From: a virus
DNA: 42,561 nucleotides
Reading direction: 5' to 3' (one strand)
Virus genome (UHGV): UHGV-0163196
Positions 3,919 through 42,480 of this stretch are shown here, one piece after another; the stretch's first letter is position 1, and each line of letters begins with the position of its first letter. The position numbers and the translations under genes were made by a program. Below the pieces are notes generated by a model. The model did not search any database. It was not told the origin of the DNA and was given only the letters and a program-made list of their open reading frames with translations.

Positions 3919-4331
3919 TACTTATCTTCCAGTTTTTTTATGATGTCCGCATGCTTGGTCTGAGTATGTTGCAGAGCTTTGATAAATGACTCAGACACGC
4001 CCTGCAAAGCAACTGCTGCATTAGTGGCCTTCATCATAGTCTGGCGAGCCTCATCAGACTGAAGAAGGGCATCCAATTGCTTAGTAAGCTTCATGACACC
4101 CTCCGTTATCTGTGGTGACAAATTCGATGCAATTAATTGCGCAAGATGCGTGTCTATTGTTTTCGCAGATGTTTTTACCTCATCTGCGGAAGCAATTTCA
4201 TCAACTGATTTTGCACTGATGACAAGGTCGGGCTTTCCGCGCTGCGTAACTGTGACGCTTTCACCAGAGCGTAAACAGTCCAGCGTTGCAGATAAATCCG
4301 ATCGCATTTGCGTGTAAGTAATGATTTTCAT
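3918..4331 (-). CDS. phd: Phd/YefM family antitoxin with C-terminal extension
   Basis: Probable start MKIITYTQMRSDLSATLD at 4331; the N-terminal ~75 aa look Phd-like, followed by a ~60 aa extension; sits immediately upstream of doc. Confidence 0.7.
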   Translation of the reverse strand: MKIITYTQMRSDLSATLDCLRSGESVTVTQRGKPDLVISAKSVDEIASADEVKTSAKTIDTHLAQLIASNLSPQITEGVMKLTKQLDALLQSDEARQTMMKATNAAVALQGVSESFIKALQHTQTKHADIIKKLEDK

Positions 4332-4341
4332 GGCACCCTCT

Positions 4342-4386
4342 CTGTACATGTACAGATTAGTGCATAATAAAAACGCGAGATCAACG
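4342..4386 (-). promoter_or_regulatory. Putative phd-doc promoter with palindromic operator
   Basis: Perfect 14-bp palindrome CTGTACATGTACAG at 4342-4355 directly upstream of the phd start; -10-like CATAAT (minus strand) at 4363-4368 and TTGATC at 4381-4386. Confidence 0.4.
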
Positions 4387-14254: not shown

Positions 14255-14737
14255 TTAAATCTTCCAGGAGATTTCTGCATTGCCGTTAGCGTCACCGGCC
14301 CCTGTGAATTCGGCGTTGGTCAGCGCCACGTTTTTGCCACTGACGGACGTGGACATGAAGCCGCCCAGCGGCACTTTGATGGATTCATCAGTGGAGACGA
14401 CAACGTATACCGGGTCGCCTTTTTTGATGGTGCTGGCATCAAAATCAGAACCGAGATTAACGGTCATGTAGCCACGCTTCATGGCGTCACCCGGGAAGTT
14501 CTTATCCGTCCCCACCTGGCGAACCATGTCTGGCTGCGATGTGGTCGGATACGGACGAACGTAGATCCCCTTCACCTTGTCGGCGGTGTCACCGTCCGCC
14601 AGCGGCACGAAAAAGCCGTCAGCGTCATATTTGCCAGCCAGACCATAGGCAGCGAAGGCGTTAGCGGATTTAAGGATCACCGGTTCGACGGTTAAGTCCT
14701 GCGGGCGAGAGATAGCCCCGGCAATGCCAACAGGCAT
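14255..14737 (-). CDS. Head decoration or scaffold-like structural protein
   Basis: 160 aa ORF immediately upstream of the major capsid gene; first helper gene left of the inserted island. Confidence 0.45.
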   Translation of the reverse strand: MPVGIAGAISRPQDLTVEPVILKSANAFAAYGLAGKYDADGFFVPLADGDTADKVKGIYVRPYPTTSQPDMVRQVGTDKNFPGDAMKRGYMTVNLGSDFDASTIKKGDPVYVVVSTDESIKVPLGGFMSTSVSGKNVALTNAEFTGAGDANGNAEISWKI

Positions 14738-14969
14738 CCGGTACAGGAATGCAAGGCTATTATTTAATCACCTGAAATATAAGGGTTTATTTGCAGTCTG
14801 ATTTTGCGTGTAGTCCATAGGCTGCTCTGTGATGTATGTCGCTGAATGGGGTAAGTTACTCAATAACAGATCTGTAGGATTTACAGGGGATTTCAATATG
14901 CAAGCTGTGCCACCAGCCCATTAGCGAACGGCGCTATTTTCCGCGCGTGACGTGTCACGGCGCTGGTGG

Positions 14970-15443
14970 TTATCCCATGAATTTGCGGTATACCTCCCCG
15001 GCTTCTTCGGCGGTTAGGTTCGTTGTTTCCGTTCTGATCGGACCACCATCCTTACCCGTTGTTTCAACCTTTAATTTGTTGGTGTAAGCGTCCCCGCACT
15101 CTTTCGCGGCCTGTTCGATAAGCTGTGCTGTTAATGCGTAATTCTTGATTGCCTCTGCACGGTTCGCCATGCGATCGAGCATACGCAGCCGGTACGCTTT
15201 GTTAGCGATAGGGATATCGGATATTTCACTCTGGAAGCGGGCGCGAGTGTGATTAAAGAGTTCTACCCATTTTTGGCTAAGATTTTTAGCCATTGTATTT
15301 TCAGGGTTGTAGGCCGATATCTGTTGCCGGGTAACAACGATGCCAAAATCTTGTTTTACAAGTTCGACGATTCTGGAAGGGGGTTCATAGCAAGCTAATG
15401 ATTGAATAATCATAACCTTAGCCATTGTTGGTAATGCCGCCAT
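14970..15443 (-). CDS. Small terminase-like protein (Sf6 gp1-like; candidate packaging-redirection factor)
   Basis: 157 aa; C-terminus KLKVETTGKDGGPIRTETTNLTAEEA resembles the Sf6 gp1 terminus (…VGKDGGAIQIETSP…); lies far from terL, inside the island. Confidence 0.55.
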   Translation of the reverse strand: MAALPTMAKVMIIQSLACYEPPSRIVELVKQDFGIVVTRQQISAYNPENTMAKNLSQKWVELFNHTRARFQSEISDIPIANKAYRLRMLDRMANRAEAIKNYALTAQLIEQAAKECGDAYTNKLKVETTGKDGGPIRTETTNLTAEEAGEVYRKFMG

Positions 15444-15535
15444 TGTTCACCTTTTGACAAAGGAAATAAAAGTAGCGTGCTGAGTTCTGCCCCTGCACCG
15501 CTACTTAAAGTTACAGATCACGTCATGGGTAGCTA

Positions 15536-16108
15536 TCACTCGCTCTCCAGATCCTCAAGAGAGAAGCAAATATGCTGTGTTGAAACAAAATAGCTCAGCA
15601 TGCTGCTTACCTTGTTTGACGCGACGTAATTATAATGCTCGACCATCTTTGCTAACGCGATAATCTCCCACCAGTAATGCTTAACTAGCTTTAGCGAAAT
15701 TAAATAAGCCCGGCTATAGAGCTTGTCGCAATCATCTCCTGTTGCGCCTTGGTTCCTGTATTGCTCAAGCACTTTCCGAATATCGCTGGCGTCTCCTTTC
15801 CCTCCATTTTCCAGTAGTTTTTCAGGTGGTTCGCCTGAGTAAAGGTGTTGTGCCATTACGCCAGAAAAAGAGACGACCATCTGCGCCAGTTCATCTTTTC
15901 TGACGGGGAGATGTGAGCATACCGCCCGGCAATTATCGACCTCTTTGCCGTTAGCCAGTCGAGCAATACGAAACTCATCAGCAATAGATATCTCAATTTG
16001 CCTAGCACCCGTAAACCACGCAGCCATCGCGTGACCGGCTTCATGGATCGCGATATTTCTGTCCCACATAGGGCTTTTGCTGAATTCAACAATTACGCCA
16101 TCACTCAC
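15536..16108 (-). CDS. Standalone HExxH zinc metallopeptidase-like protein
   Basis: 190 aa with the motif IAIHEAGHAMAAW (HEAGH, as in FtsH/M41 and ImmA-like peptidases) and no ATPase domain. Confidence 0.5.
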   Translation of the reverse strand: MSDGVIVEFSKSPMWDRNIAIHEAGHAMAAWFTGARQIEISIADEFRIARLANGKEVDNCRAVCSHLPVRKDELAQMVVSFSGVMAQHLYSGEPPEKLLENGGKGDASDIRKVLEQYRNQGATGDDCDKLYSRAYLISLKLVKHYWWEIIALAKMVEHYNYVASNKVSSMLSYFVSTQHICFSLEDLESE

Positions 16109-16170
16109 GCTGCTTACTCTCCGTTAGATCTGTCATTTAGTTAAATTGAACTGCGTTGGGGGAGTCTCCA

Positions 16171-16350
16171 TCACACACTCCCTTCAACTGCTATTGATTC
16201 CAGCGCCTTAGCCACCAGCCCACGAGCAATTTGATGGACAGACGGCGCGACGCCAATATCGGAGCGCTGGCGTTCGCGCTCCTGGATCTTGCAGATTGCG
16301 GCGAACTGGTCGCCAGAGAGTAATACCGGCTTAACGTTTGGCTTTTTCAT
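16171..16350 (-). CDS. Small hypothetical protein (59 aa)
   Basis: Internal start MKKPNVKPVLLSG… of the 112 aa track ORF; the other reading would overlap the upstream 64 aa gene. Confidence 0.3.
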   Translation of the reverse strand: MKKPNVKPVLLSGDQFAAICKIQERERQRSDIGVAPSVHQIARGLVAKALESIAVEGSV

Positions 16351-16525
16351 CCTGTTCACTCCAGAACTTTGCATTCGCTTCGTTGACTTTTTCCAGATTG
16401 CGGCATTCGTTGTTGAAGTTGTTGCGCATCCGCAATTGCTCGGCCTGTTCACGGCCAAAGAGTTTACGCCCGGCGCTTTGCGGGTTTCCTGCAGCCAATT
16501 TCGGGTCATAAATAGCCATGCTCAT
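16331..16525 (-). CDS. Small basic hypothetical protein (64 aa)
   Basis: ATG preceded by AAGGAG with good spacing; lysine/glutamate-rich and probably helical. Confidence 0.4.
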   Translation of the reverse strand: MSMAIYDPKLAAGNPQSAGRKLFGREQAEQLRMRNNFNNECRNLEKVNEANAKFWSEQDEKAKR

Positions 16526-16531
16526 TGCTCC

Positions 16532-17095
16532 TTACTTCGTGCGATGCCAGAAACTGGCGTTATCGGTGTTAATGCTGCGAATGGCGTCGCCTGTGGAGAG
16601 AATCTTCGGTGAAACGTTGTTAACTCGCATGTAGTCGCCAACCTGCTCCAGAACGTCGATAGCCTGATCAAGCTGAATCTCTGATAGCGGGGTCGGATGT
16701 ACCGCACTGAATGCCTCAGCGGGTGCGTAACGCAGCACATCAAGCGCAACAAGGCGAGGATCGGTATCAGGAAGGGCGTTGTCATACTTTGGTGCTACAG
16801 CGCGTACCAGGCGCATAAATTCAGCGTCCATTGCCGTTGGTGCGGTAGAGGTGGGAGAAGCGCCGCTGCCACTACGTGTAATCATGTCACTATCGCGGGT
16901 GTACATCCGGCGCAAGCGGTCTCCGGTTGCAATGCGTGTTGCACGTTCCTGCTTAAGCGTCGTTGCAAGATTCGCAATGACGAGAGCCACAGGAAGCGAG
17001 CAGGTCAGCCTTTCGAACGTATCATCGGAGTAAGTCACCTCGACGGTACCACCAGCGTTATCACTTTCCAGATTAACATTGGTTATCTGTTTCAT
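16532..17095 (-). CDS. Hypothetical protein (187 aa), first gene of the island's left module
   Basis: ORF following a promoter-like AT-rich region at 17100-17250; no recognisable motif. Confidence 0.45.
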   Translation of the reverse strand: MKQITNVNLESDNAGGTVEVTYSDDTFERLTCSLPVALVIANLATTLKQERATRIATGDRLRRMYTRDSDMITRSGSGASPTSTAPTAMDAEFMRLVRAVAPKYDNALPDTDPRLVALDVLRYAPAEAFSAVHPTPLSEIQLDQAIDVLEQVGDYMRVNNVSPKILSTGDAIRSINTDNASFWHRTK

Positions 17096-17378
17096 TGTTC
17101 ATAACCTTTTGCGTTGTTTAAATTCTGATCATTGCATAAATTGCAACATTAGTAAATATCATTGCGCATATTGAAATGGCAAATCGACGTGATACTATGA
17201 CGGTGATCCACCATTGTGTGATTGCATAAACATGGTTATCAAAAGCCCTCGCCTCTCCAGCGCGGGCTTTTTCTTTTCCGCTCCGCAAAGTTGCCGTTTC
17301 CGCATACTTTCACTTAGGCGACGCCCCTCCAAATTCGTAATTACTCTCCGAAAAAACTCTATAGATAAGCAAAAACAT

Positions 17379-17675
17379 GTTGGTTCAGTTGGTTCAGTTG
17401 GTTCAATTTGTAAAGATTGTTGTTTTATAAGGATTATTTCTTTCAGAGTGAACCAACAAAGCCCCGTTTTGAACCAACAAACGCTATTTTCGTGTTGGTT
17501 CAGTGGGAAAGATTTACAGGCCAGCCAGAAAAAGGCGTTGGTTCAATAGCGGCATTTGTTGGTTCAAAATGGGCGTTTGTTGGTTCGGTGTTGGTTCACT
17601 TACAAGCATGTAAATGCATTAAATACATACACTTATATTAATTAAATAGTTACTGAACCAACTGAACCAACAAAA
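17379..17675. repeat. Iteron cluster: candidate satellite replication origin
   Basis: At least 12 copies of the core TTGGTTCA in both orientations (for example 17379-17405 tandem, 17449-17457, 17470-17478, 17494-17502, 17654-17670), interspersed with AT-rich DNA, immediately downstream of the primase-helicase gene. Confidence 0.7.
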
Positions 17676-17696
17676 AAACATCTCGTATGTGTGTTT

Positions 17697-20477
17697 TTAT
17701 TCTTCACCCTCCATCTCGTCGGGTCGTAGCTGGAGCACATAAACGTTTATCTGGCGTCCATCAATTCGCGGGGATTTACGCTGATACCCCCTTCCGCTGG
17801 CTGGCGGTTTCAGCACCCCAGCCCCGGCCAGCACACGGGCAAACTGTTTCGCGTTGAATCCCTTCGCAATCTCACCTTCGAATGCTGCCGGGAACGTGTA
17901 GAACACTATCGGATCAGCATCATGCGCCCCTTTCTGACGGTACCCGGCCAAATCCCGAATCGGCATGTCAGCCGGGTCATAAGGGTAAGGTGCAAATCGG
18001 CTCAGTCCGTATGCATTAAGAAACGCCTCTGCCTGCTCGATGATCTGCTTATGCTCACGGTTCCCCGTGCCAAACTCTTTCACCCAGGCGTTAAAGCCAT
18101 GCTGGATGGCGTCCCGGCTTTCCTGCTCCCCCCAGCCAGTGACAGGCATCCCAAGCACCAGCGCCGCCTCCAGAATGGCGAACCGCTCGCCTACACGATG
18201 AACCTGTTCGCCATAATCAGCGGGGATAAGACTGCGCCAGCGCTCTTGCGCCGCTCTGACAGCTTGTTTTGCCTCCTGCTGGTGGCCTGCAAGCCATTTA
18301 ATCCATTCACGGCCTGCGGCTCCGTGGTTCGTCTGGTAAGCCTCTTTGAGTGCGTCGGCGTGTTGCTTCCCGTTCTGGTACTCATGGTGCGTTACTGATT
18401 TCTCCATCGGTAAATTAAGCAGCCGCACCAGTTGTCCGGCCTTAACTTTCAGCCCACCAGCAGAAAGAAACGTCTCAATGTCCATTTCCCCGGTACTGAT
18501 CGCCACGGTACGCCAGCGCTTTAACTCGCGGTTGCCTCCCTCCTTCGCCCCCTGTAGCTTTCCGGCACCGTTAAACAGCGTGTAAGCTGACGTGGCAACG
18601 TCTTTGGCGCTACTGCCCTGCCCCACTTCGTCCAGCGGTAACAGGCTATCGTTATGCGCTTCCGCTTCGTTGGCGATACCCAGCGCAGTACCGTACCAGG
18701 TGAGGCGCAGGGCATCCGGTTCACCGTATAAACTGCTGGCAATGTTGGCGGTCGTTGTCTTCCCTGCGCTGGACTGTTCGAAAAGGTGAACACCGAAACC
18801 GTCAGCGCCAACAAGCCCGATCAGCGGTGCAGACAGCGCAGCCGCAACACCCAGCATCATTGACGGGTTTCCCAACGCAAGACGCGCCACCGAATCACGC
18901 CAGCTTTCCGGCGTTCCACTGACGGTATAGCCACCAGCCGCCGCACTGCGGCCACTGAATAAAAGCGGTATCTCTGGATCACCAATAACATCACCATCCG
19001 GCATGATGTACGCCCCGCTGTGCCAGCCTGTGGTGTGGCTGATCTGCCACTCCTTGCCGCTACCGGTTCGCTGTAGCCAGTCGGCCAGAATTGCCCGCAA
19101 CGATGGTTTGGTCGTCACACTGACACCGCCGTTTTTCAGAGTTCGCCATCCCTCGCGGTCGCCAATGTCCTCCCAAGGAAGCGCACGGGTAACTTGCCCC
19201 CGATTGCCGGGAACGTCCCAACGCAGGATCAGAAAGCGCTGTCTGGCGTTATCACTCCCCGCACCAGCAATCTCCAGCGGAGAGCATAGCCACGCCTCGG
19301 TATTGATAATTTCCCCTGTGTCTTTGTCCACTTTCGGGGTGATCCAGTGAATGCCATCCGAACGGCTCTCTACTCGCGGTTTAAGGTCGTCGTCGATACC
19401 AGGGCTTTTTTTGCCGCCGTCGATTGCTGTCAGTGTCGCACCCACTTTCTTACCCTCCGGTTGATACATTGAGTCGTTAAATGCTGCTGTGGCCGCTTCG
19501 AGGCCGTATTGCTGGTGGTAGTCGTTCCAGTCCGCTTTATAGTCCACTGGTGGCATGGAAACCCAGCCAGAAACGGCTTTCGCGGCTTTCTCTGCGGCCT
19601 CCTTGCCAGTGTTAACTTTCACTCCTTTAATTCCGTCACTTTCGCCCATCTGGTCGTTATCTGCGGCAATGATGATTTGTGCCTGTGGGTACTTCCGGCG
19701 CATCACTTCGGCAACGGGTAGCAGGTTGCCCGCGTCAATTGCTGCCACTGCCAGCGCGTCCGGGCGCATCAGGTGAACTGAAAGGGCCGTCGCCAGCCCC
19801 TCGGCAATTAAAACGCTCTGCGGCGATTCTGGCGCGTTTACGGCATGATATGCCCCGCGCTTTGCTGAACCTGTCAGGAGTCGCTTCTCTCCCTGCGGTG
19901 TAATGGTTTGCGCTGCTGCCACTGCGCCGGATTCGTCCACCAGCTCCAGCAATAACGAACCATCAGGCATAACCGGATAGTTAAACCCGGTCAGCCCTTT
20001 TGATTGCAGGTAATCAGATTCGCCCTGTGTGGCACTCTGGCGCATTCCGGCATACAGACGGGCAAACGTAGCCCTTCGCTGCTCTGCGTCCCCTGCTGCC
20101 TGTTTCTGGCGCTCCTGCTCACGCTGCTGGCGGTCAGCTTCCAGTTGCTCCCTTCTATGGCTCGCTGCCACCGGGTCGGATTGCGCTGCCAGGTAATCAA
20201 TACCCAGCACGTCAGCGGCAAGCTGTGCCGCCTCCGTAGTGTCGCAGTTGTTAACCCGCTTGATTAAATCCAGCCCGTCACCAGCGCCACACTGGTTGCA
20301 GATAAAGCTACCGCGCCCGTTGTCGTCGAATCTGAAACGGTCTTTTCCACCACATGCAGGGCATGGAGAATGGCGGCGCGATGAATCAGGCACGTCGATA
20401 GACAACCCAGCCAGCACATAAGGCCAGCGCCCTGCTGCGGCGCTGGTCACTTCGCGGATAAGGTCGATATTACGCAT
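17697..20477 (-). CDS. P4 alpha-like primase-helicase (zinc-ribbon, TOPRIM, D5-like helicase)
   Basis: Zinc ribbon CPACGG…CNQCG, TOPRIM-like IIIAADNDQ, Walker A SSAGKTTT; ~925 aa. Start taken at MRNIDLIRE. Confidence 0.85.
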   Translation of the reverse strand: MRNIDLIREVTSAAAGRWPYVLAGLSIDVPDSSRRHSPCPACGGKDRFRFDDNGRGSFICNQCGAGDGLDLIKRVNNCDTTEAAQLAADVLGIDYLAAQSDPVAASHRREQLEADRQQREQERQKQAAGDAEQRRATFARLYAGMRQSATQGESDYLQSKGLTGFNYPVMPDGSLLLELVDESGAVAAAQTITPQGEKRLLTGSAKRGAYHAVNAPESPQSVLIAEGLATALSVHLMRPDALAVAAIDAGNLLPVAEVMRRKYPQAQIIIAADNDQMGESDGIKGVKVNTGKEAAEKAAKAVSGWVSMPPVDYKADWNDYHQQYGLEAATAAFNDSMYQPEGKKVGATLTAIDGGKKSPGIDDDLKPRVESRSDGIHWITPKVDKDTGEIINTEAWLCSPLEIAGAGSDNARQRFLILRWDVPGNRGQVTRALPWEDIGDREGWRTLKNGGVSVTTKPSLRAILADWLQRTGSGKEWQISHTTGWHSGAYIMPDGDVIGDPEIPLLFSGRSAAAGGYTVSGTPESWRDSVARLALGNPSMMLGVAAALSAPLIGLVGADGFGVHLFEQSSAGKTTTANIASSLYGEPDALRLTWYGTALGIANEAEAHNDSLLPLDEVGQGSSAKDVATSAYTLFNGAGKLQGAKEGGNRELKRWRTVAISTGEMDIETFLSAGGLKVKAGQLVRLLNLPMEKSVTHHEYQNGKQHADALKEAYQTNHGAAGREWIKWLAGHQQEAKQAVRAAQERWRSLIPADYGEQVHRVGERFAILEAALVLGMPVTGWGEQESRDAIQHGFNAWVKEFGTGNREHKQIIEQAEAFLNAYGLSRFAPYPYDPADMPIRDLAGYRQKGAHDADPIVFYTFPAAFEGEIAKGFNAKQFARVLAGAGVLKPPASGRGYQRKSPRIDGRQINVYVLQLRPDEMEGEE

Positions 20478-20811
20478 GGTTGCCTCCTGCCACGGTCGCG
20501 CCCATATCATTAATCATGCTTTGCCATATCTCGCGCCCGACGTCAGTCAATCCGTCCTTAGTGACGCAACGATCAAGAAGCTCGATCCCCACGGTTTCCC
20601 ACTGCGGGTAGAACACTTTCATGGCTGCCAGTGTGTAGCTATCGATCAGGCTGCGAACGCCTTTTACTCCATTGACGATTTCCACACGGACGGCGAGGCC
20701 GTCCGCATCAACCATGAAATAGTCCCCGCCGCTGGTGGCGGTAATGTGGTTATACAGTGCCGACGCATACTTATTCGCCAGCGCATTCAGTCGGAAATTT
20801 TTAGTAATCAT
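20470..20811 (-). CDS. Hypothetical protein (113 aa)
   Basis: ORF coupled to the primase start; no recognisable motif. Confidence 0.45.
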   Translation of the reverse strand: MITKNFRLNALANKYASALYNHITATSGGDYFMVDADGLAVRVEIVNGVKGVRSLIDSYTLAAMKVFYPQWETVGIELLDRCVTKDGLTDVGREIWQSMINDMGATVAGGNHA

Positions 20812-20820
20812 GTCGCCCCC

Positions 20821-21447
20821 TCAGTGCGCCAGCGGCATTTCAGGCCAGCCGTTTTCATCCAGTTCAGCTATAAAGCTGTTGTGAAGTTCAGCAAGCGTTT
20901 CACGCCCGAACGGGGTCAACTCGCCGCGCTCCGTGTCCAGCATGGCCTGATAAAAAACAATGGCGTTCGCCGTTCCCTGCTCAATGCCGTAGCGCTCAAT
21001 CATTGCGCCCTCGATGTTGTTCGCCATCGCCAGCCGTTCAGCAAACGGGTAAACCACCATGCCCGCATTACCATTGGAGTAAATCGCCACCTGCGATGAT
21101 GTGCCGTCAGCCTCAGTAACCGTGGTGGTGCCGTTCTCGCGCTTCATCTCAGAAACGAACGTCGCAGCAATCAGCCAGCGCCACATAGTGACGTTATGCT
21201 GCGCGGTGAAGTCGAACCAGCCACGCGCCCCGCCATCAGCAACGGCAAAATGAATGGCGTAGCCGATATCGGGCGTATCGTCGTACTCTCCCGCATCCAG
21301 ACGGCTTACAGCGCTCTCATAGGTGATAATGGCTACATGCTCATACATCCCGGCATCGTTGCGGGTCATGATATTGACGCCGTGCGGTGTGGCTTCGGCG
21401 TGGAACAGGTCGGGATTTCCCGGTTTAATGGTCAGTATATTGCTCAT
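20821..21447 (-). CDS. Hypothetical protein (208 aa)
   Basis: ORF in the island's early operon; no recognisable motif. Confidence 0.45.
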   Translation of the reverse strand: MSNILTIKPGNPDLFHAEATPHGVNIMTRNDAGMYEHVAIITYESAVSRLDAGEYDDTPDIGYAIHFAVADGGARGWFDFTAQHNVTMWRWLIAATFVSEMKRENGTTTVTEADGTSSQVAIYSNGNAGMVVYPFAERLAMANNIEGAMIERYGIEQGTANAIVFYQAMLDTERGELTPFGRETLAELHNSFIAELDENGWPEMPLAH

Positions 21448-21665
21448 GCTTTGCCCTCCCGATATTCACGCATTACATGGTCAGCTAGCTTGCTTTCAGC
21501 CTCGCTCATTGCTTCGGGCACACCGTGTAACAGCGTCAGAATGGAACCTATAAGGCGTGGTAAATCGGGATCTGTTTTATTGGTGGTGCTCTCCAGCCAC
21601 ATGGACAAAACAGCCTGTGCCTGTTCAATCTGGCAGGCAGCATCAATCAGTTGTAACTGGCTCAT
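21444..21665 (-). CDS. Hypothetical protein (73 aa)
   Basis: Small ORF overlapping its neighbours by 4 nt. Confidence 0.35.
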   Translation of the reverse strand: MSQLQLIDAACQIEQAQAVLSMWLESTTNKTDPDLPRLIGSILTLLHGVPEAMSEAESKLADHVMREYREGKA

Positions 21666-21925
21666 GCGCTGCCCTCCGCATCAATTCTGGCTATATCGAC
21701 AATCGTCAGGACTTTACTAAGCCAGCAATACGCGATGGCTGCTTGCTCAACTTCGAGGAGTGGTAATAAATCGGTCATAACGTGAGCCAGCCCATTGCGG
21801 GCGCGGGTCATGCGTTCTGCGGTACGCTCTGCCAGCGTGAAAGAGTCAGGGTACGGCTGTTCGCGGGATAGCATCGCCTCGGCCTCAAGATCTGCAGGAT
21901 GGCGATAGATGGTATGAATGTTCAC
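21662..21925 (-). CDS. Hypothetical protein (87 aa; GTG start or internal Met)
   Basis: ORF in series with the neighbouring small genes; start codon uncertain. Confidence 0.35.
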   Translation of the reverse strand: MNIHTIYRHPADLEAEAMLSREQPYPDSFTLAERTAERMTRARNGLAHVMTDLLPLLEVEQAAIAYCWLSKVLTIVDIARIDAEGSA

Positions 21926-22101
21926 GCTGCCACCTCCTGAATACGAGTAATACGAACGTGCTTATAACCGCCTTTATTCGCCAGTAGTTGCGCAGTCGAT
22001 TTAGCTGTTTCTGGACTGGTGCTAGTCATGGTGTAGTGAATGCCGACGGTGTTACCGCGCTTGTTAACAGCGTATCCGTCGATCTGGAAGGTTTTACGCA
22101 T
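21922..22101 (-). CDS. Small hypothetical protein (59 aa)
   Basis: Hand-translated MRKTFQIDGYAVNKRGNTVGIHYTMTSTSPETAKSTAQLLANKGGYKHVRITRIQEVAA; below the ORF track length cut-off. Confidence 0.3.
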   Translation of the reverse strand: MRKTFQIDGYAVNKRGNTVGIHYTMTSTSPETAKSTAQLLANKGGYKHVRITRIQEVAA

Positions 22102-22972
22102 TTCCGACCTCCATTGCTAAACGGGACTGGATAGCTGCCGCTTTACTGCCTAATTGCAGGTAAGTACGAGTTATCGCAGGGTTGCTATGACCCAGCATTT
22201 CAGAGGCCACTAATAGGCCCTGTTCGCCACCTGCGGACATGAGGTTAAAGGCGGCTATTTTGCGGCTTGAGTAGGCGCTCAGGCGCAATTTAGCGTTAAT
22301 GAAACGGGTAAACCACGCCATGACGCCATGAAGTTTGCGCCAGATGGTTTGGCGAGTAACGCTACCTTCCAGACGTTGACAACGGTTACTTTCGATTTGA
22401 GAGCGGGAAAATACCAGGTCGTCCTCCACCAGATTCCGATCCTGACGGTCACGCAGCCGCTTGATAATGCCGGGGGGTAACTGTTTGGTGTCGTGCTTGA
22501 CGTCAGCCTTAGCCACCAGCCCGAACACAATCGCCTGTTCTTCGTCGTTCATATCGGCGGCCAGTTCATCACAGCCGATACTATCCCACTTCATGTAGGC
22601 GATATGGTCAGCGGCGAGCCGCGCGGCGTCCTTGCGCTGCTGGCGCACAATTTCAATACCTTTGCGGGTTGCCCGCGCTTCTGCGGCTTTGGTCTGTTTG
22701 GAAACGATAATTGTCGCCTGTCCAGTTTCCCAATTGATGCAGGAATAGCGCAGGTTGCAAACGTCGCTGGTACGCCAGCCGGTTACGGTCGCAATATCCC
22801 ACCAGAGCAACACCCAATCGGGCTGTGTCTGCTGGATGCGCTCGCGTAGCTTGCGCTGCTCGTCACGGTCATAGACAGGGGTCATGGTGCGACTGCCCTT
22901 TGTGCTCGCCGCTTTAACGACATTGCCGCGCAGCTCGCGGGCTTTGGCTGTCAGAGTCTGGAGGTTAAACAT
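22094..22972 (-). CDS. Second tyrosine recombinase (short phage-integrase family, no arm-binding N-domain)
   Basis: About 292 aa from MFNLQTLTAKAREL; C-terminal LGHSNPAITRTYLQ with a candidate catalytic Tyr and conserved Arg/His positions. Confidence 0.65.
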   Translation of the reverse strand: MFNLQTLTAKARELRGNVVKAASTKGSRTMTPVYDRDEQRKLRERIQQTQPDWVLLWWDIATVTGWRTSDVCNLRYSCINWETGQATIIVSKQTKAAEARATRKGIEIVRQQRKDAARLAADHIAYMKWDSIGCDELAADMNDEEQAIVFGLVAKADVKHDTKQLPPGIIKRLRDRQDRNLVEDDLVFSRSQIESNRCQRLEGSVTRQTIWRKLHGVMAWFTRFINAKLRLSAYSSRKIAAFNLMSAGGEQGLLVASEMLGHSNPAITRTYLQLGSKAAAIQSRLAMEVGNA

Positions 22973-23153
22973 GACGCACCTCCGGCACTGGCAGACGTGC
23001 GGCCAGAGACAAAATAAAGTGCGGCGCAAGGATGCGGCGGGCTTCGCGTTCGGTCGCAGCCTCAACGGACAGACGGCAAGGTTTGGCTTTTTTATCGTGG
23101 CGATTCAGCGCGAGAAAGCGCCAGGTGAATTTTGAGTGTGCGGATCTAGCCAT
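22965..23153 (-). CDS. Small protein (possibly Icd/Ash-like)
   Basis: 62 aa, MARSAHSKFTWRFLALNRHDKKAKPCRLSVEA…; recalled resemblance to small Icd-like prophage proteins only. Confidence 0.35.
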   Translation of the reverse strand: MARSAHSKFTWRFLALNRHDKKAKPCRLSVEAATEREARRILAPHFILSLAARLPVPEVRHV

Positions 23154-23473
23154 TTTTAGCGGCTCCTAGAACATATTGAAGGAGTCTCGCCAGATGCTGC
23201 TAAACATGGGTGGCGAGACGTGACGGGGTTAGCAGACTGGCGTTCTAGGAAACCAGCAGGCGTTAAGCCTCCCCACCACGCCCCGCCATAAATCGGGGGT
23301 ATGGTTGGTTTTCGGGCGTAAAAATACCGCTATACGGAAATCAGCGGCTACCCGCTAGAACGTTCAGGCTGCTAAACCCGGCACCCGTTTTGTGAGGTGC
23401 GAAATAATCATAACCACACTACCCCGTTAAGCGCAAGGGAAATATCCCCTGCGCCCACAATGCAAACTTGTGA
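23154..23473. promoter_or_regulatory. Repeat-rich intergenic region (candidate recombinase/regulator binding sites)
   Basis: Motifs CTAGAAC and GCTGCTAAAC recur in direct and inverted orientation at 23161-23205, 23227-23250 and 23353-23377. Confidence 0.4.
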
Positions 23474-24544
23474 TTAGTACCCGCGAGAAGCGTAAACTCG
23501 TGCCATGCCAGCCCAATGAGAGAAAAGAATTTCCCACTTAATTGGGTTGTAGGTAATACTTCCATCGACTGCGGCAGCATTCCATGCCCGATCAGAAATA
23601 GAGCTATCTTTAGCAGTTTTCCCCCATTCAACAATATCCCTTGCTAAAGCCTGTACACATGCTCGACTGACTACCTTTTCGTCAACGTACGCCCCAACAT
23701 CAGAGCATGACTCCATACTCATGTTCAGGCTATTTTTAAGGGACTCCAGCCCGGCCACTGACATAAAGCGACGACCATTAGCGTATGCAACACCGTCATT
23801 CCTGATAGTGAACTTAACAGTGTGGAATGCGTCAACAATCATCCGCTGCTCTGGCGTCGGGTTCTGCCATAGCACAAGGTTAATCTCTCTCTCAGAAGCT
23901 ATTGATTCTGCTTTCTCACGCTTAACTCGTGCATCCCGTTCTGCCTGGTATTGTTTTTGATTTTCATCATGAGCCTTTTGGTAACTAGAGGCTAATGCGT
24001 CTCTGTTTTTGGCAAATGCTGCAATGCTATTTTTGAAATCGCTTCTGCTAACCTTGTTTAACCCCATACTCCAGCGGTCATTTTCGTAATCATCATAAAT
24101 GGCATCAACTTTTGCCGGATTACTCAGCACAGTCGCCAGATTAACCGGAATTTTAGCCATCTCGTCACTGATTCTCGCTACATGTTCGAAAGTCGATATA
24201 GAGCCAACTTCATGACTCCCATACTCATGATAAGCGGCATAAAAAATTGGAATAGATTGAGGTTTTTCGTTCACTGACTTAATGATGCTTTTTTCATCAC
24301 ATGACTGTTCACCCCATTTGAAAACACTTTTCCCACCATTTTTGTATGTGTTGCAATCATCAATACCCAAACGAACCAGCGCATCCCATCCGGGCCGTTT
24401 CTTGTAATCCTCGCTCTTGACAACATGCATTGTGGTTAGGGCTTTCGCAGGATCTAACTTGCCAGCGGTACAAGACACGATAGGAAAGGCCAGAGAAGCG
24501 CAGGCTGCTATCCTGAAAAGGCTCGTCAATCTTTCTTTTTTCAT
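23474..24544 (-). CDS. Lipoprotein of unknown function (island cargo)
   Basis: 356 aa; N-terminus MKKERLTSLFRIAACASLAFPIVSC carries a signal peptide with lipobox-like Cys; AT-richer than its surroundings; flanked by ~0.3 and ~0.9 kb non-coding DNA. Confidence 0.6.
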   Translation of the reverse strand: MKKERLTSLFRIAACASLAFPIVSCTAGKLDPAKALTTMHVVKSEDYKKRPGWDALVRLGIDDCNTYKNGGKSVFKWGEQSCDEKSIIKSVNEKPQSIPIFYAAYHEYGSHEVGSISTFEHVARISDEMAKIPVNLATVLSNPAKVDAIYDDYENDRWSMGLNKVSRSDFKNSIAAFAKNRDALASSYQKAHDENQKQYQAERDARVKREKAESIASEREINLVLWQNPTPEQRMIVDAFHTVKFTIRNDGVAYANGRRFMSVAGLESLKNSLNMSMESCSDVGAYVDEKVVSRACVQALARDIVEWGKTAKDSSISDRAWNAAAVDGSITYNPIKWEILFSHWAGMARVYASRGY

Positions 24545-24708
24545 CGTCCTAATGCTCTTTCAAACCAAGAATGTAGGACATAGTAAATTGTGGTTAATGG
24601 CAAGTCGATATAAAGGCCGGGTTATTGGCTTCGGTGCCAATATCATTTCTCCGAAATTTCATAACGCCTGTAATCGCTCGTTTCCCCATCTTGGGGACAT
24701 TTCAAAAC

Positions 24709-24828
24709 TGCGAATCAAAGTGCGAATGGAACTGCGAATTCGCAAAGAGAGAGCGCCGCTCAAAGCAGGCCGGATAAGGCTTCGCGGACATATTGCGAAT
24801 GCGAATCCACCAGAAACGAAACGCGAAT
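24709..24828. repeat. GCGAAT repeat cluster including the palindrome TGCGAATTCGCA
   Basis: Six copies of (T)GCGAAT within 120 bp; the 12-bp palindrome at 24733-24744 also occurs twice in the helper terS gene. Confidence 0.55.
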
Positions 24829-25384
24829 CACCCATAAACAAAACCGATACGCAGGGAGCGTACTGCCCGTATTCAATCGGCCGAAAAGTCAGCCGATTAA
24901 AATCATGCCCGGCTATCCCCTGAAATTTCAGGAGATCGAGAGCCACCAGCAGAGAACCGTTCATGCCATCGGTAACTTGCAGCCCGAAGCTCAAATCTGA
25001 GCGTTGACCGCCAGCCAGAAGAAACCATTTTAAATCCCGCGCCTTCTCTTTGGATGAACAGGGTTACTCCCCGTAATGCTGTGAACTGCCACGATGATTC
25101 GGGGTTGTGTTGCGCTGGCCTTTGAGTCCCGCACAAACACTGACCCACAAAATTTTTGTAGGTGACTGGCCCTCTTGATGAGGTGCTGTTTTGCGTAACC
25201 CTTAATGAGTTGTGCAAAGGCTCAACCCTTCAAAAGGGTTGCCTAACCACCGGCGATAGTAATAACCGCCAACCTATGAACACTATGAACACCTTTGAGC
25301 ATTTTTCTATAAACATTCCACTACTGCCCTATTTGATGCCTTTCTCTGGCTGGCCTGTGTAAGTTACCGTTGCTGGGAACTGAC

Positions 25385-25420
25385 AATAAAAAAGGCTTGC
25401 CCCTCTCAGGTAACAAGCCT
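25385..25420 (-). terminator. Putative intrinsic terminator downstream of alpA
   Basis: Stem aggcttg/caagcct at 25393-25420 with a run of A on the plus strand at 25386-25392 (U-run on the minus transcript). Confidence 0.4.
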
Positions 25421-25438
25421 TGTCTATCGCTCTGGATC

Positions 25439-25651
25439 TCACTCACTACAGATTCCGCGCTTTTGGCTCTGTCTTCCGATCCACGCCTCCACCTCATCGC
25501 GATACCAGCAATTGCGGCCGCCAACTTTGAAGGGCATCGGAAAGCCGTTCCCCTCATCCTTCAGAAATTCATAGAACGCAGAATCAGAACGGTAGCGTAG
25601 ACGGGCTTTAACTTCGACTTTGAGCAAAATATCACTGTTAGATATGGACAT
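25439..25651 (-). CDS. alpA: AlpA-family transcriptional regulator/excisionase
   Basis: 70 aa with the typical AlpA pattern (…FPMPFKVGGRNCWYRDEVEAWI…), directly downstream of the integrase gene. Confidence 0.75.
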   Translation of the reverse strand: MSISNSDILLKVEVKARLRYRSDSAFYEFLKDEGNGFPMPFKVGGRNCWYRDEVEAWIGRQSQKRGICSE

Positions 25652-25793
25652 AAAAACCTCATTATATATTCGATATAATTATATATGATTTGAATAAAAA
25701 AAACGCATTCCGGTTAGCTTTGGGCATAAAAAAAGCTGGCTTAAAGCCAGCTATACCCGTTTGAAATCATGATTATCCAGAAATGGATGTGCC

Positions 25794-27023
25794 TTACACA
25801 ACCAGCCTCAAGCCCTTATCGCCGCTGGTCTCCAGTATTTCGCCACACTCTGCGGCCTCGATAAAGTCCCCCCACCATTGCATTAAAACCCGGCGTTTTT
25901 CCAGATAGTCGCTACGGTTATAAACATTTCGAATCGCATCGGCGCTTTTGTGAGCGAGTGCAGCCTCAATCACATCAGGGTTGAACCCCTCGTCATTTAA
26001 AACTGTAGATGCCAACGCCCTGAACCCATGAGGAACAATCAGCCCTTTAAACGACGTTTTGTGTATCCCGGCCTGAGTCGCACAGCGTGAGATCGGCTTA
26101 TTTTCTTTTCGCCATGAGGGGAAAACATAATCGCAGCGCTTCCACTTTTCGGCCTCTTTAAGCACGTTTATAGCCTGGCTCGATAATGGGACTACGTGGG
26201 GGCGCTTTCCTTTCATCCGGCTTGCAGGGATTTGCCAGATTGAGTTATCAAAATCAATCTCATTCCAGAGAGCGCCGCCAGCCTCCGAAGGCCGGACCAT
26301 CGTAATGATCTGGAATAATAATGCCAGCTTTGATGGCTCCCATAAGCTCAACTCGTTCCATGCGCTTAAAAATTCGGGCAACCGCTCTTTCTGTAAAGTC
26401 GCTCTTGGCTCGTTTTTTTCAGCCGGGAATGCTTTACCAATTTTCGATAGCGGGTTGTGCTCAATAACCCCAATGTTTACCGCATAATCCATTATGGCGT
26501 TGATGGTAATAACCATTTTCGTAAGCGTTGATGGCCTTTCCCTGAAAGGTTTAAAAGCCTGAATAGTATCGGCTGCGTTTATTTTATGTACCGTGGTATG
26601 CCTAAAAATCGTGGAAAGATGCTTCAACGTCACATTGTGCGATTCAAGCGTGTTGCTTCTCGCACCTTCTTTAATCTTGATTTTTAGCCATTCATCGGCA
26701 ACGGCCTGAAATGACTGCGCGTACATTTTACGCTGTTCATTCCTGGCATCTTTTTTGACTTCGTTCGGATCTATCCCTCGCGCTACCATACGGCGCAGTT
26801 TCGAACGTTCCTCCCTCGCTTCGGACAAAGTAAACTCCGGGTATCGTCCAATAGTATAGGTTTGTCTCTTCTTCGTTACCGGGTGTACATACCGAAAACG
26901 CCATGACTTACCGCCCCGGCTTGTGATGTAAAGCAACAAACCGAAACCATCGTGCAAACTGAAATCCTTGCCCTGTGCCTTCGCGCTTTTCACTTCGACG
27001 CTAGTTAGTGGCCTAACAATCAT
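25794..27023 (-). CDS. int: P4-type tyrosine integrase
   Basis: 409 aa; N-terminal arm-binding domain typical of P4-like integrases (…DGFGLLLYITSRGGKSWRFRY…) and a C-terminal catalytic domain. Confidence 0.85.
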   Translation of the reverse strand: MIVRPLTSVEVKSAKAQGKDFSLHDGFGLLLYITSRGGKSWRFRYVHPVTKKRQTYTIGRYPEFTLSEAREERSKLRRMVARGIDPNEVKKDARNEQRKMYAQSFQAVADEWLKIKIKEGARSNTLESHNVTLKHLSTIFRHTTVHKINAADTIQAFKPFRERPSTLTKMVITINAIMDYAVNIGVIEHNPLSKIGKAFPAEKNEPRATLQKERLPEFLSAWNELSLWEPSKLALLFQIITMVRPSEAGGALWNEIDFDNSIWQIPASRMKGKRPHVVPLSSQAINVLKEAEKWKRCDYVFPSWRKENKPISRCATQAGIHKTSFKGLIVPHGFRALASTVLNDEGFNPDVIEAALAHKSADAIRNVYNRSDYLEKRRVLMQWWGDFIEAAECGEILETSGDKGLRLVV

Positions 27024-27237
27024 TCAACACCTCTCTGGCTACCATGTAATGCAAACGGCGCATGATTCTCTTTCTAGTCCCTCATGTACCGAATCAAAGC
27101 GAAATCCGGCGAATAAATCCGCACATGTTCGGAGTGTCATTTTTATGGTTCAGGCCAGTAACGCCGTATGATTCCGAACGATAACGCACTGATTAATAGA
27201 TATTAGTTGCATAAGGTACAGATATGCAGTCATTGGA

Positions 27238-28458
27238 TTATCCTTTGCGGTTAGACCAGAAGTCGGCGTTTTGTTTGTTCAGGGAAGCGATGCTGGTCAT
27301 GCCCATATTTGGACGTTGTGCATCGCCCGTGGTGCTGCGGGTGTTTCGCCCTTTGGCAATCTCTGACACGGCGTTAAACGCCATATCTACCGATTGCTTG
27401 GGCAATTTGCGGATATCTGCATCACCGACAACCTGGCGAACCAGTGTTTTGTCAGCGGCGGACAGCACATCACGTTTGAACGCGGTCGGTTTCACCTTAC
27501 GGCTCAGATCGATACCCGGGACGATAACTTCGGCACGATAAGCAGCGTCACCAGTAATCGTGGTTTCTTCTTCATCGTCCTCGCCGTCACCGGTCGGATT
27601 ATCGTCAGGCTTATTGTCGTTATCGCCCGTCGCAGTTCCTTCGAGCTTAGCCAGCAGGGCTTTGAGCAAGGTTTTGATATCGTCCTCGCCGTCGCCGGTT
27701 GGCTCTCCGCCCATTTCCGGCTTTTTGTCCGGCAATGGTTGCTGCGGTGAAAGGTTAATGTTGAGGTTAACGCCGCTCGGCAGATCCCCTTCGTCACCCG
27801 TTACCGCCGCTGGCGCAGAGTCCAGCAGTTCGTTCATGGTGTCAGCGTCACCCGTTTTGATGGCCGTGCGCATGCGGGTCCACCAGCTTTTCTTTTGATT
27901 TGCCATTGTGTCTCTGTCTCCAATTGCACAACGATTTCCGGCTCTGCCTTTGGGGACAAGAGCCACATGGTTTCCGGTAATATCGACCTGCTCGGCTTTA
28001 CCTGGCTCGGTCTGCTCGTACTCCGCGTCATAGCCGCACGACACTTCACGCAGGCCATCTTCGATAAGCTGAATGGCGTTTTCGTCTTTGACGATAAGGT
28101 CAGCCAGCATCAAATCAGACTGATCACCAGTCCCGCGCCGAACGTTCTGAAGATGCCCGACCGCAAGCTCTTTCCAGTTCTCGGGGTTGACCAGCCGCAC
28201 ATTTCCGTTTTCATCTTCAGGATGCAGGATCGTGATGCTCATCCCTTCGAATGAGGCGAGCGTGGCCGGATGGAATACCTGCTCAGGAGAGCGCGTTACG
28301 ACTATTTCACCGAACTTATCGGGTTTCAGTTTTGGCAGGTCATCAGCACCATAGAGCTGCTTACCTGTTCGTCCTATCGGCACGTCTTTGCACAGCAGCG
28401 AGCCGTCAGCCAGCTGATAACGGGTTTCCCCCAGCCGGGTATTGAAAAAATATTTCAT
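27238..28458 (-). CDS. Capsid scaffold/maturation protein (putative), with acidic Gly/Asp-rich linker
   Basis: 406 aa ORF downstream of the head-morphogenesis gene; central low-complexity acidic region. Confidence 0.45.
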
Positions 28459-34517: not shown

Positions 34518-35027
34518 TCAGCCTGCGCATTCACCACAATTCTTGTTGTAACTTCCGAATATTTTTTCCCTTTCCGAAGTCACAAATTTTATAGCATCCT
34601 CTTTGCGTTTAAATGTCTTGAAGGCCGCAGTTTTTCTATTAACAAAAACACGAGCATGCCAAAGCCTATCTCTCGAGTGGAAACAAACACCACGACAACC
34701 AGACCGGTTCCTTTTCGAGGTTATTGTGTTCATGTTGTTTTGCGATCTGCTAACAAGCCTAAGATTTGATATCCTGTTGTCGTCTCTTATGCCATTCACA
34801 TGATCTATTTCTAAGCCGCTATTTATTTCGCCATTGCACAAAATCCACGCCAGACGATGAGCAAAGTATCTTTTACCTCCTAAAGATATTTGCCTGTAAC
34901 CGAACGAATTCAGCGAACCAGCAATCATGCCAGGCTTAGATCTTCCTGTTTTTACCTTCCACACGAAGATGCCGGTAGATGGATTAAATGACAAAGATTC
35001 TTTAATGCGTTCACTTGTTAAAAGCAT
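34518..35027 (-). CDS. HNH endonuclease with AP2-like DNA-binding domain
   Basis: 169 aa with HNH motif (…EIDHVNGIRDDNRISNLRLVSRSQNN…) and a C-terminal AP2-like region; AT-rich; sits in the Q-S cargo slot. Confidence 0.7.
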   Translation of the reverse strand: MLLTSERIKESLSFNPSTGIFVWKVKTGRSKPGMIAGSLNSFGYRQISLGGKRYFAHRLAWILCNGEINSGLEIDHVNGIRDDNRISNLRLVSRSQNNMNTITSKRNRSGCRGVCFHSRDRLWHARVFVNRKTAAFKTFKRKEDAIKFVTSEREKIFGSYNKNCGECAG

Positions 35028-36380: not shown

Positions 36381-36655
36381 TGGACAAACACCCTCCCATT
36401 GTTAACCAATTTTTTAAGGGTAAGCACAATGGCCCGATCCATTTCAGCCCTTCGCTCTTCCCTGCTCATATCTCTCCCATTATCAATTCTTGAATGACAA
36501 TCAACACATAGCGCAGCAGTAAGGCAATCATCTACTTTAATCCCAACCCCCTTCCCTTCATTTCTATGAGCGGCCTGAACTCCGTATCTTCCGCAAAGAA
36601 CGCAAAATTCAATATCCCTGACTGCCTGAAGCCATTTTTTGCTTCTAAACATCAA
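36377..36655 (-). CDS. Cys/His-rich zinc-ribbon nin-region protein (DUF1364-like)
   Basis: 92 aa with CVLCG…C…CVDCH spacing. Confidence 0.45.
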   Translation of the reverse strand: MMFRSKKWLQAVRDIEFCVLCGRYGVQAAHRNEGKGVGIKVDDCLTAALCVDCHSRIDNGRDMSREERRAEMDRAIVLTLKKLVNNGRVFVQ

Positions 36656-37154
36656 TCCCCTCCAAAAAACGTCGGTACGCTGATTTGTTTTTTATGTTGC
36701 ACACTGTCTGCGCACAAACACCAAATTCTTTGGCTATATCTCTGTATTTTCCTTTTGATTTATATATTGATTTCACTTGTTCTGGCGTTAGTTTGCAGAA
36801 GTGATGATTAAACCCATGAACAAGCAATCCGGAATCAAATCCATGTTTCGCATTTTCTGTTCGCGTTACCCACTCAAGATTTTCAACTTTATTATTAAGT
36901 TTATTTCCATCCTTGTGATTAACTTCCGGTTTGCCATCTGGGTTATCAATAAATACTTCTGCAACAATTCTGTGAACCATTTTATATGATGTTCTTTTCC
37001 CGCCACCTGGATACAGACCGACAAATGCATATCCTCCTGGTTTAATGCCATGAGATAATTTTTTTGATTTACGGCATGAAATGATGTCTCCATTTTCAGT
37101 TACTTTATATATACCCTCAAAGCCGGGGATATCTTTTTCTTTAACATCACTCAT
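36645..37154 (-). CDS. HNH homing endonuclease (NUMOD4-like N-terminus)
   Basis: 169 aa; GFEGIYKVTENGDII followed by an HNH core (…EVNHKDGNKLNNKVENLEWVTRTENAKH…); AT-rich relative to flanking nin genes. Confidence 0.75.
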   Translation of the reverse strand: MSDVKEKDIPGFEGIYKVTENGDIISCRKSKKLSHGIKPGGYAFVGLYPGGGKRTSYKMVHRIVAEVFIDNPDGKPEVNHKDGNKLNNKVENLEWVTRTENAKHGFDSGLLVHGFNHHFCKLTPEQVKSIYKSKGKYRDIAKEFGVCAQTVCNIKNKSAYRRFLEGIDV

Positions 37155-37496: not shown

Positions 37497-38020
37497 GCCG
37501 CCCTCCTGACGCCCTGCCCGATCGCCATCAATGCCGCTTTGGATACGGTAGTAAACATCCGTCGAGGACTGATGAACGGTCGCCAAATCAGCAGCATGGA
37601 GCCTTTGCTGTTTCCCTTCTTCTCCAGCCCTGTCGATGGTTCGATAAAATTAATCCGTCCATCAGTGATAATGCGAACTTCGTCGACACTCTCCAGAGCC
37701 TTGCTGAACCATCCGACTGACATATCCTCTGGCACAAGCATCACTATCGTCTGTCGCTGTTGTATGCACTGCTCAGCGGCTTTTTCCACCCACGGCCTGA
37801 TATTGCTGTACGGTGGGTTATTCCAGATTGCACCGTGACTTACCCACTCAGAATTGAGCGCGTCGTCGGCCTCAGTTAGCCAGTGAGCGCACAGAGCATT
37901 TTTGTCGCTAGCAGCTGAATCCAGCCAGAATCCAAACTCAATATCCAGTGCATCAAAAAGCCAAAGCGGCGTTTGCCAGCAGTCCTTGTCGTGTGCTGCC
38001 GTATTTGATTTGATAGTCAT
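37493..38020 (-). CDS. Phage Dam-like N6-adenine DNA methyltransferase
   Basis: Start [18 protein letters not shown]; catalytic NPPY motif (…[14 protein letters not shown]…); no adjacent restriction gene. Confidence 0.75.
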
Positions 38021-38457
38021 GCAGCCCGATCTCCCCATCTCGCTTTCCACTCCAGAGCCAGTCTCGCTTCGTCTGACCACTTAACGCCACGCTCTGTACC
38101 GAATGCCTGTATAAGCTCTAATAGCTCCGCAAATTCGCCTACACGCATCCTGCTGGTTGACTGGCCTATTACCACAAAGCCATTCCCGGCAAGGTTAGGA
38201 ACAACATCCTGCTGCTTTAATGCTGCGGTAAACACACACTTCCAGCTTTCTGCATCCAGCCAGCGACCATGCCATTCAACCTGACGAGAGACGTCACCTA
38301 AGCAGGCCCATAGCTTCCTGTTTTGGTCTAAGCTGCGGTTGCGCTACTGAATGATCACTACGATTGGTTTGGTTGGGTCTGGAAGGATTTGCTGTACTGC
38401 GTGAATAGCGTTTTGCTGATGTGCTGGAGATCGAATTTCAAAGGTTAGTTTTTTCAT
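38017..38457 (-). pseudogene. ninB: ninB interrupted by an in-frame TAG (amber) at codon 39
   Basis: Frame from ATG 38457 reads MKKLTFEIRSPAHQQNAIHAVQQILPDPTKPIVVIIQ then TAG (plus 38344-38346); the same frame continues open and lambda-NinB-like to the stop at 38017 (…[73 protein letters not shown]). Confidence 0.6.
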
Positions 38458-38473
38458 GACTTCCCTCTCCCCC

Positions 38474-38504
38474 AAATAAAAAGGCCTGCGATTACCAGCA
38501 GGCC
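38474..38504 (-). terminator. tR2-like intrinsic terminator between replication and nin genes
   Basis: Stem ggcctgc/gcaggcc at 38483-38504 with a run of A on the plus strand at 38476-38482 (U-run on the minus transcript). Confidence 0.5.
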
Positions 38505-38533
38505 TGTTATTAGCTCAGTGATGTAGATGGTCA

Positions 38534-41763: not shown

Positions 41764-42480
<717 letters not shown>

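Follow-up and report, generated by a model that had tools for sequence, protein, structure and literature searches.

A codon-38 amber in ninB (orf) of a wild Escherichia coli prophage is probably a recent single-base null allele of a dispensable gene

The window (i.e. the whole stretch of DNA analysed here, 42,561 nucleotides long) has an early region that is HK022/HK106-like (∼97% identity) and structural genes that resemble those of Citrobacter phage Omnitron and of some E. coli prophages. The prophages of E. coli strains ECONIH5 and ABWA45 match 70–80% of it at ∼93–98% identity and have a common architecture with it. Judged from these relationships, the window is a wild mosaic prophage and not a laboratory phage. 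The genes around ninB follow the order replication protein, DnaB-like helicase, ninB, Dam, NinE, NinF, HNH, YbcO-like, RusA and Q, and all neighbours of ninB are intact. The right end of the window (42561) lies just past a cI-type repressor gene; the early-left operon (N, recombinase and integrase) is outside the window, and the recombinase that Orf would assist is not among the window genes. Feature coordinates are collected in Table 1.

Table 1. Positions of ninB, its amber codon and other features in the window
Feature	Positions	Strand	Basis or remark
ninB/orf, amber-interrupted (pseudogene or null allele)	38017..38457	minus	441 bp; PF05772 match, 145/146 to PDB 1PC6
Amber TAG, codon 38 (Glu in every intact allele)	38344..38346	minus	direct sequence reading
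Still-translated part, 37 codons, MKKLTFEIRSPAHQQNAIHAVQQILPDPTKPIVVIIQ	38347..38457	minus	sequence reading
Polymorphism block GTG ATC ATT CAG GAG (V34 silent, T35I, E38 GAG)	38344..38356	minus	allele alignment
Longest in-frame ORF 3′ of the stop, 72 aa, beginning with GTG at V75	38017..38235	minus	ORF list
ATGA overlap: ninB stop TGA 38019–38017 and methyltransferase start ATG 38020–38018	38017..38020	minus	sequence
Dam-family methyltransferase, downstream of ninB	38020–37493	minus	PF05869 Dam, 216 bits
GC-rich hairpin then T-run, TTTTATTT tail	38482..38505	minus	8-bp stem, 6 GC pairs
HNH endonuclease between ninF and YbcO-like gene	36645–37154	minus	NUMOD4+HNH_3
Second free-standing HNH endonuclease, between Q and lysis genes	34518–35027	minus	HNH_3
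cI-type repressor gene	41767–42480	plus	HTH_3 + Peptidase_S24
Phd/Doc-type toxin–antitoxin pair	3511–4349	minus	Fic/DOC match 45 bits; Phd_YefM 28.3 bits, just under 29.8 cut-off
Satellite, 12.46 kb	∼14742–27214
Satellite junctions	14734–14753 and 27209–27228		imperfect 20-bp repeat, 7-bp identical core
gp24-type cement-protein gene	14255–14737
DUF2213 gene	27238–28458
P4-type integrase	25794–27023	minus	satellite
AlpA-like protein	25439–25651	minus	satellite, weak match
C4 antisense RNA	23206–23293	minus	Rfam RF01695, 75 bits vs gathering score 45
Second integrase-like protein	22094–23065	minus	satellite
Zn-ribbon/Toprim/DUF927 primase-helicase	17697–20510	minus	satellite
DUF2280 protein	14970–15443	minus	satellite

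Read on the minus strand, ninB begins with an ATG (38457–38455), meets an in-frame TAG (38346–38344, i.e. CTA at 38344–38346 on the plus strand) and reaches its normal TGA at 38019–38017. The ORF list breaks the gene in two, a fragment ending at 38344 and the 72-aa ORF at 38235–38017, which gene callers enter as a NinB fragment of its own. In a profile search, the 146-aa translation, with X at the stop, matches the Pfam NinB family (PF05772) over residues 3–128 at 179.1 bits (E=4.2e-53; curated cut-off 23.8 bits), and because this match runs across the stop, the frame is NinB on both sides of it. With Glu at codon 38, the translation is identical to lambda NinB/Orf (PDB 1PC6 chain A) at 145 of 146 residues (E=3.4e-97). 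The earlier note had claimed an in-frame TAG at codon 39 with a NinB-like frame on either side. The stop and its surrounding frame are borne out by the minus-strand reading and the PF05772 match, and the coordinates hold, but the codon number becomes 38 when counting starts from the ATG that RefSeq gives identical genes (M1…Q37, then the stop).

The profile, the relationship to lambda Orf and the synteny all place the gene in the ninB (PF05772) family, while its frame of ∼146 aa is interrupted. Codons for the helix-2 residues R41, Q45, N46, K48 and W50 are present but lie 3′ of the TAG. The window ninB thus belongs to the family by descent but not by function, as a pseudogene or null allele. 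A GC-rich hairpin lies about 25 nt 5′ of its start, and we take it to occupy the position of the lambda terminator tR2; in the hairpin scan overall, sites were no more numerous than in shuffled sequence.

Several mobile or accessory genes occur elsewhere in the window. A Phd/Doc-type toxin–antitoxin pair sits inside the baseplate/tail gene cluster and is conserved in the ECONIH5 and ABWA45 prophages. The NUMOD4+HNH_3 gene next to ninF is absent at that position in the closest nin-region relatives, and the site that carries an HNH gene in several other E. coli prophages is that between ninB and dam. Together with the second HNH gene, between Q and the lysis genes, these genes look like mobile homing-type endonucleases moving round the nin region.

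Of all features of the window, the most unusual is a satellite element embedded in the head-gene cluster, inserted a few bases upstream of the start of the cement-protein gene and downstream of the DUF2213 gene. Its genes share the minus strand with the late genes of its helper. The C4 RNA, which lies between a 356-aa ORF and the second integrase-like gene, is probably the immunity RNA of the satellite; it was the only Rfam match, and no Rfam RNA was found near ninB. The insertion site is empty in E. coli NZ_LR536431.1 and holds related elements in four complete E. coli genomes (ABWA45, ET791, ECONIH5 and EC2001). Tommasini, Mageeney and Williams (2023, PMC10111431) described helper-embedded PICIs as a class with 14 sites, which take their names from lambda late-gene cognates. 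The element in the window combines an integrase, an AlpA-like protein, an immunity RNA, a primase-type replication gene and a late zone, all oriented like the late genes of the helper; it is integrated within the late region of the prophage, att repeats flank it and its empty site is known. By its gene content and placement, it fits this published class. One IMG/VR record (IMGVR_UViG_3300045988_113726, 27,870 bp) files the satellite and half of its helper as a single virus with the tail half missing. It begins 50 bp outside the satellite junction, ends at the right end of the window and is the sole public exact match.

We then compared the window ninB with intact alleles. Against WP_000736903.1 (the commonest, and that of the two closest intact E. 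coli alleles in this comparison), the 441 bp are identical except for four substitutions within 13 bp, which turn GTA ACC ATT CAG GAA into GTG ATC ATT CAG TAG; the resulting block creates a TGATCA (BclI/Dam) site at 38352–38357. Such a cluster could be read as an amber engineered in the laboratory by oligonucleotide mutagenesis together with a diagnostic BclI site, as GAA→TAG needs two of the four substitutions and the other two create TGATCA. However, GTGATCATTCAG followed by GAG (V-I-I-Q-E) is found in 19 intact ninB genes of IMG/VR (19 contigs) and at 34 places in 32 complete E. coli genomes, which makes three of the four changes natural and leaves one substitution. Moreover, the window is a wild mosaic prophage with a nested satellite and with kin among environmental and clinical E. 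coli prophages, not a laboratory phage. The probability of an engineered allele is therefore virtually nil, and the natural V-I-I-Q-E/GAG block effectively refutes it.

The earlier note had proposed that ninB alleles of related prophages be compared, and this comparison returned an intact natural allele a single base from the window gene. With GAG restored, the window ninB equals that of E. coli NZ_LR536431.1 at 441 of 441 positions, and as found at 440 of 441 (protein WP_000736886.1); over window positions 37995–38469, the two sequences differ at one of 475 bases. The ECONIH5 prophage (NZ_CP026202.1) also has an intact NinB WP_000736886.1 in matching position and gene context, and its gene differs from that of the window at nt 112 and at five positions that leave the protein unchanged. 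Since the V-I-I-Q-E/GAG block is natural and an intact allele lies one base away, the amber is a single G>T. The alignments indicate that three of the four changes are natural allele mosaicism and that the sole new event is the G>T at nt 112 (window 38346), GAG→TAG. A multi-nucleotide mutation or a short gene-conversion tract as the origin of the stop was rejected, only nt 112 being new. More generally, a substitution cluster round a stop can be allele mosaicism plus one mutation, and only after the closest allele has been identified should design or some special mechanism be inferred.

The functional consequences can be judged from studies of lambda Orf. Its most conserved residues (R41, Q45, N46, K48 and W50) are in helix 2 and line the central channel; W50A and K48A proteins are defective in DNA binding, R103, V106 and the C-terminal helix are also implicated, and the conserved and functional residues are all downstream of residue 38 (Curtis et al. 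2014, PMC4118853). The stop at codon 38 precedes every mapped functional residue, and the allele is therefore predicted to be a null. The 37-residue product, ending before helix 2, is predicted to be non-functional, and the 72-aa downstream ORF, which lacks helix 2, is unlikely to be functional.

We suggest that the change from Glu38 to amber arose on the naturally occurring V-I-I-Q-E allele. Translation would end after 37 residues, before helix 2 and the ssDNA-binding residues of the central channel; most of the dimer interface and the C-terminal helix would also be lost, and no functional Orf recombination mediator would be made. The loss would be tolerated because Orf is an accessory protein, which helps to load the phage or host recombinase on SSB-coated DNA but is dispensable for growth, and the expected cost would be less phage-recombinase-dependent exchange. 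De Paepe et al. (2014, PMC3945230) found lambda orf deletion mutants to be viable; their Red-dependent exchange was ∼10-fold lower in a host lacking recA but not significantly changed in the presence of RecA. The ATGA arrangement suggests translational coupling between ninB and the methyltransferase gene. The amber, 327 nt upstream, would break this coupling, and translation of the overlapping Dam-type gene might fall as a side effect.

Intact ninB alleles provide a measure of constraint. Among the 17 distinct alleles whose loci were fetched, codon differences number 190 synonymous and 16 non-synonymous, only four residues vary, and Glu38 is invariant, encoded by GAG in 14 alleles and by GAA in three. 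By this comparison, intact ninB is under purifying selection. The window ninB has no further damage, and the lesion is therefore probably recent. Other disrupted ninB genes are also found in nature: the identical 72-aa C-terminal ORF occurs in 184 blocks of a public collection, and the lesions in the ten contigs listed of these blocks include W62 TGA (two), W62 TAG, E61 TAA, W50 TAG, −1 frameshifts and a 5′ deletion. Natural ninB lesions thus use all three stop codons, so there is nothing amber-specific about them.

The integrity of the rest of the phage was assessed by tblastn with all ORFs of three related prophages as probes, 249 of which had matches at ≥85% identity (i.e. at least 85%). 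By this survey, no real gene of the window other than ninB contains an in-frame stop or a break in its frame. The other flagged in-frame stops were discarded on inspection as shadow ORFs on the non-coding strand, alternative frames within real genes or artificial 5′ extensions of longest ORFs. Multiple in-frame TAGs in conserved genes, which would point to TAG reassignment, were not found with these 249 probe ORFs. With ARAGORN, neither a tRNA nor a tmRNA gene was found in the 42.5-kb window, and the tRNA genes of two relatives are ordinary tRNA-Asn/Thr genes only. That ninB is the sole lesion and that no tRNA is present makes general decay, reassignment of TAG and a suppressor carried by the phage less likely.

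Alternatively, the allele could be functional through an amber-suppressor tRNA of the host or through leaky termination at UAG-C, with Gln, Tyr, Ser or another residue placed at position 38. UAG followed by C is a weak termination context in which trace readthrough is possible, Orf may suffice in small amounts, and the remainder of the gene is perfectly preserved. A recent null, however, predicts equally perfect preservation, and natural ninB lesions use TGA, TAA and frameshifts too, without an amber pattern. The invariance of Glu38 implies that a substituted residue may not be tolerated, the lack of an in-frame TAG in any other conserved gene implies a genome without adaptation to suppression or recoding, and to our knowledge amber suppressors are uncommon outside laboratory strains. 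The suppressor-dependent allele considered in the earlier note thus finds no support in a window without any tRNA gene or another in-frame stop in a conserved gene, and we regard a functional allele of this kind as extremely unlikely.

How widely the amber allele occurs bears on whether the base itself is real. The TAG-centred 31-mer has no match in 5,426 complete E. coli genomes; each 28-base seed word of this probe includes codon 38, and as a positive control the probe with GAG was found at 34 places in complete E. coli genomes. Exact-allele scans of metagenome and species-representative genome collections returned no copy. IMG/VR holds one amber copy, in the record described above, which is exactly window 14692–42561 at 100% identity with coinciding right ends; as a sub-interval of the window contig, it was rejected as independent confirmation. 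A second IMG/VR match was rejected as a chance 18-mer match in an unrelated sequence. The amber allele and its base call thus come from one assembly.

A possible explanation is that an error in sequencing or in the consensus produced the TAG, the real phage having GAG and an intact ninB. The allele is seen in one assembly only, the IMG/VR record being that contig trimmed, no other public sequence has the amber, a common intact allele is one base away, and G>T substitutions are typical of oxidative damage artefacts. However, true differences far outnumber substitution errors in assembly consensus sequences, and the window differs from its closest relatives at 2–4% of sites, which makes a real substitution much likelier a priori than an error at any given site. 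Neither frameshifts nor further stops are seen on the coding strand, a sign of a clean assembly, and real ninB nonsense alleles exist in unrelated assemblies. We therefore consider an error unlikely.

The truncated product itself proved to be a poor guide to the frequency of the allele. An exact look-up of the 37-aa product returned nine contigs from unrelated draft assemblies and metagenomes, and the 43-aa version with a TTG start is not on record. At least seven of the nine contigs stop right after ATTCAG G or ATTCAG GA, and the other two had no probe match. These records were rejected as a census of the amber allele, the contigs ending at the GAA/GAG polymorphic base of codon 38; their 37-aa 'NinB' proteins are assembly breaks between co-resident ninB alleles. 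Short NinB 'proteins' in databases are often contig-end cuts at a polymorphic site, and this is a trap when truncations are counted.

It could also be argued that the loss of ninB was selected rather than neutral, for instance because Orf is costly in lysogens or because a defence of the host or of the satellite senses it. A benefit could then fall to the lysogen, to the phage or to its satellite, e.g. through evasion of such a defence or through less recombination with co-resident prophages. Several distinct ninB nulls occur across prophage backgrounds, with a stop at W62 in three, they recur though intact alleles are strongly constrained, and in the window ninB is the sole lesion of an otherwise intact phage. 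On the other hand, the lesion tally covers ninB alone, errors may account for some of the lesions (e.g. the homopolymer frameshifts of read-level assemblies), the amber is missing from all 34 copies that complete E. coli genomes hold of this allele class, and all 17 distinct intact alleles, a less biased sample, are constrained. In the literature, nothing relevant was found that links ninB/orf to the triggering or escape of defence, and no paper was found that ties the gene to defence. Selection for the loss is very unlikely on this evidence, and we give equally little credence to a recurrent adaptive loss of ninB/orf in wild prophages of which the codon-38 amber would be one instance. If true, an enrichment of ninB loss would bear on how recombination mediators shape prophage mosaicism.

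Taken together, the ninB amber is probably (at a probability of about 0.8) a recent single-base G>T nonsense null in a dispensable accessory gene of a natural E. coli prophage. A nonsense-inactivated dispensable gene was among the explanations first offered for this stop, and it is upheld by the intact allele one base away, the position of the stop before the mapped residues, the viability of lambda orf deletions and the other natural lesions. On this reading, the amber is an ordinary loss of function in a dispensable phage gene, i.e. a known kind of event that involves no new mechanism. In annotation, the locus is best entered as one ninB pseudogene or null allele (E38 amber) instead of two small ORFs, and Orf mediator activity is expected to be absent from the phage. 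Beyond correct annotation, the amber has little importance.

The window allele can finally be compared with known systems. At codon 38, the WP_000736886.1 allele (NZ_LR536431.1 and ECONIH5) reads GAG (Glu) instead of the TAG of the window. Other disrupted ninB genes resemble that of the window in ending prematurely in the first half and leaving the 72-aa C-terminal ORF, but their stops, frameshifts or deletions are at different sites and none has the codon-38 amber. The classical lambda ambers likewise place an in-frame UAG in a phage gene. Sam7 and Pam80 are laboratory-selected ambers in essential lambda genes and are kept on suppressor hosts, whereas the gene hit in the window is non-essential, the prophage is a wild one and there is no sign of a suppressor. 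The helper of the embedded satellite has a different head module (DUF2213/gp24 cement protein) from the lambda late-gene cognates after which sites of helper-embedded PICIs are named.

The order of replication genes, orf and rusA/rap upstream of Q is conserved (PMC4118853). The window ninB shares this ninR place with lambda NinB/Orf, after the replication genes and a tR2-like hairpin and before rusA and Q, although its flanking replication genes are of the DnaB-helicase type and not lambda P. Compared with lambda Orf, it has a single substitution, T35I, which is a natural variant, and a frame closed at codon 38, so that only 37 residues are possible. The closest phenotypic model is provided by the lambda orf deletions of De Paepe et al. 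(PMC3945230), in which Orf is fully lost from a viable lambdoid phage; those mutants are recombineered deletions in lambda with Red, whereas the window carries a spontaneous point mutation.
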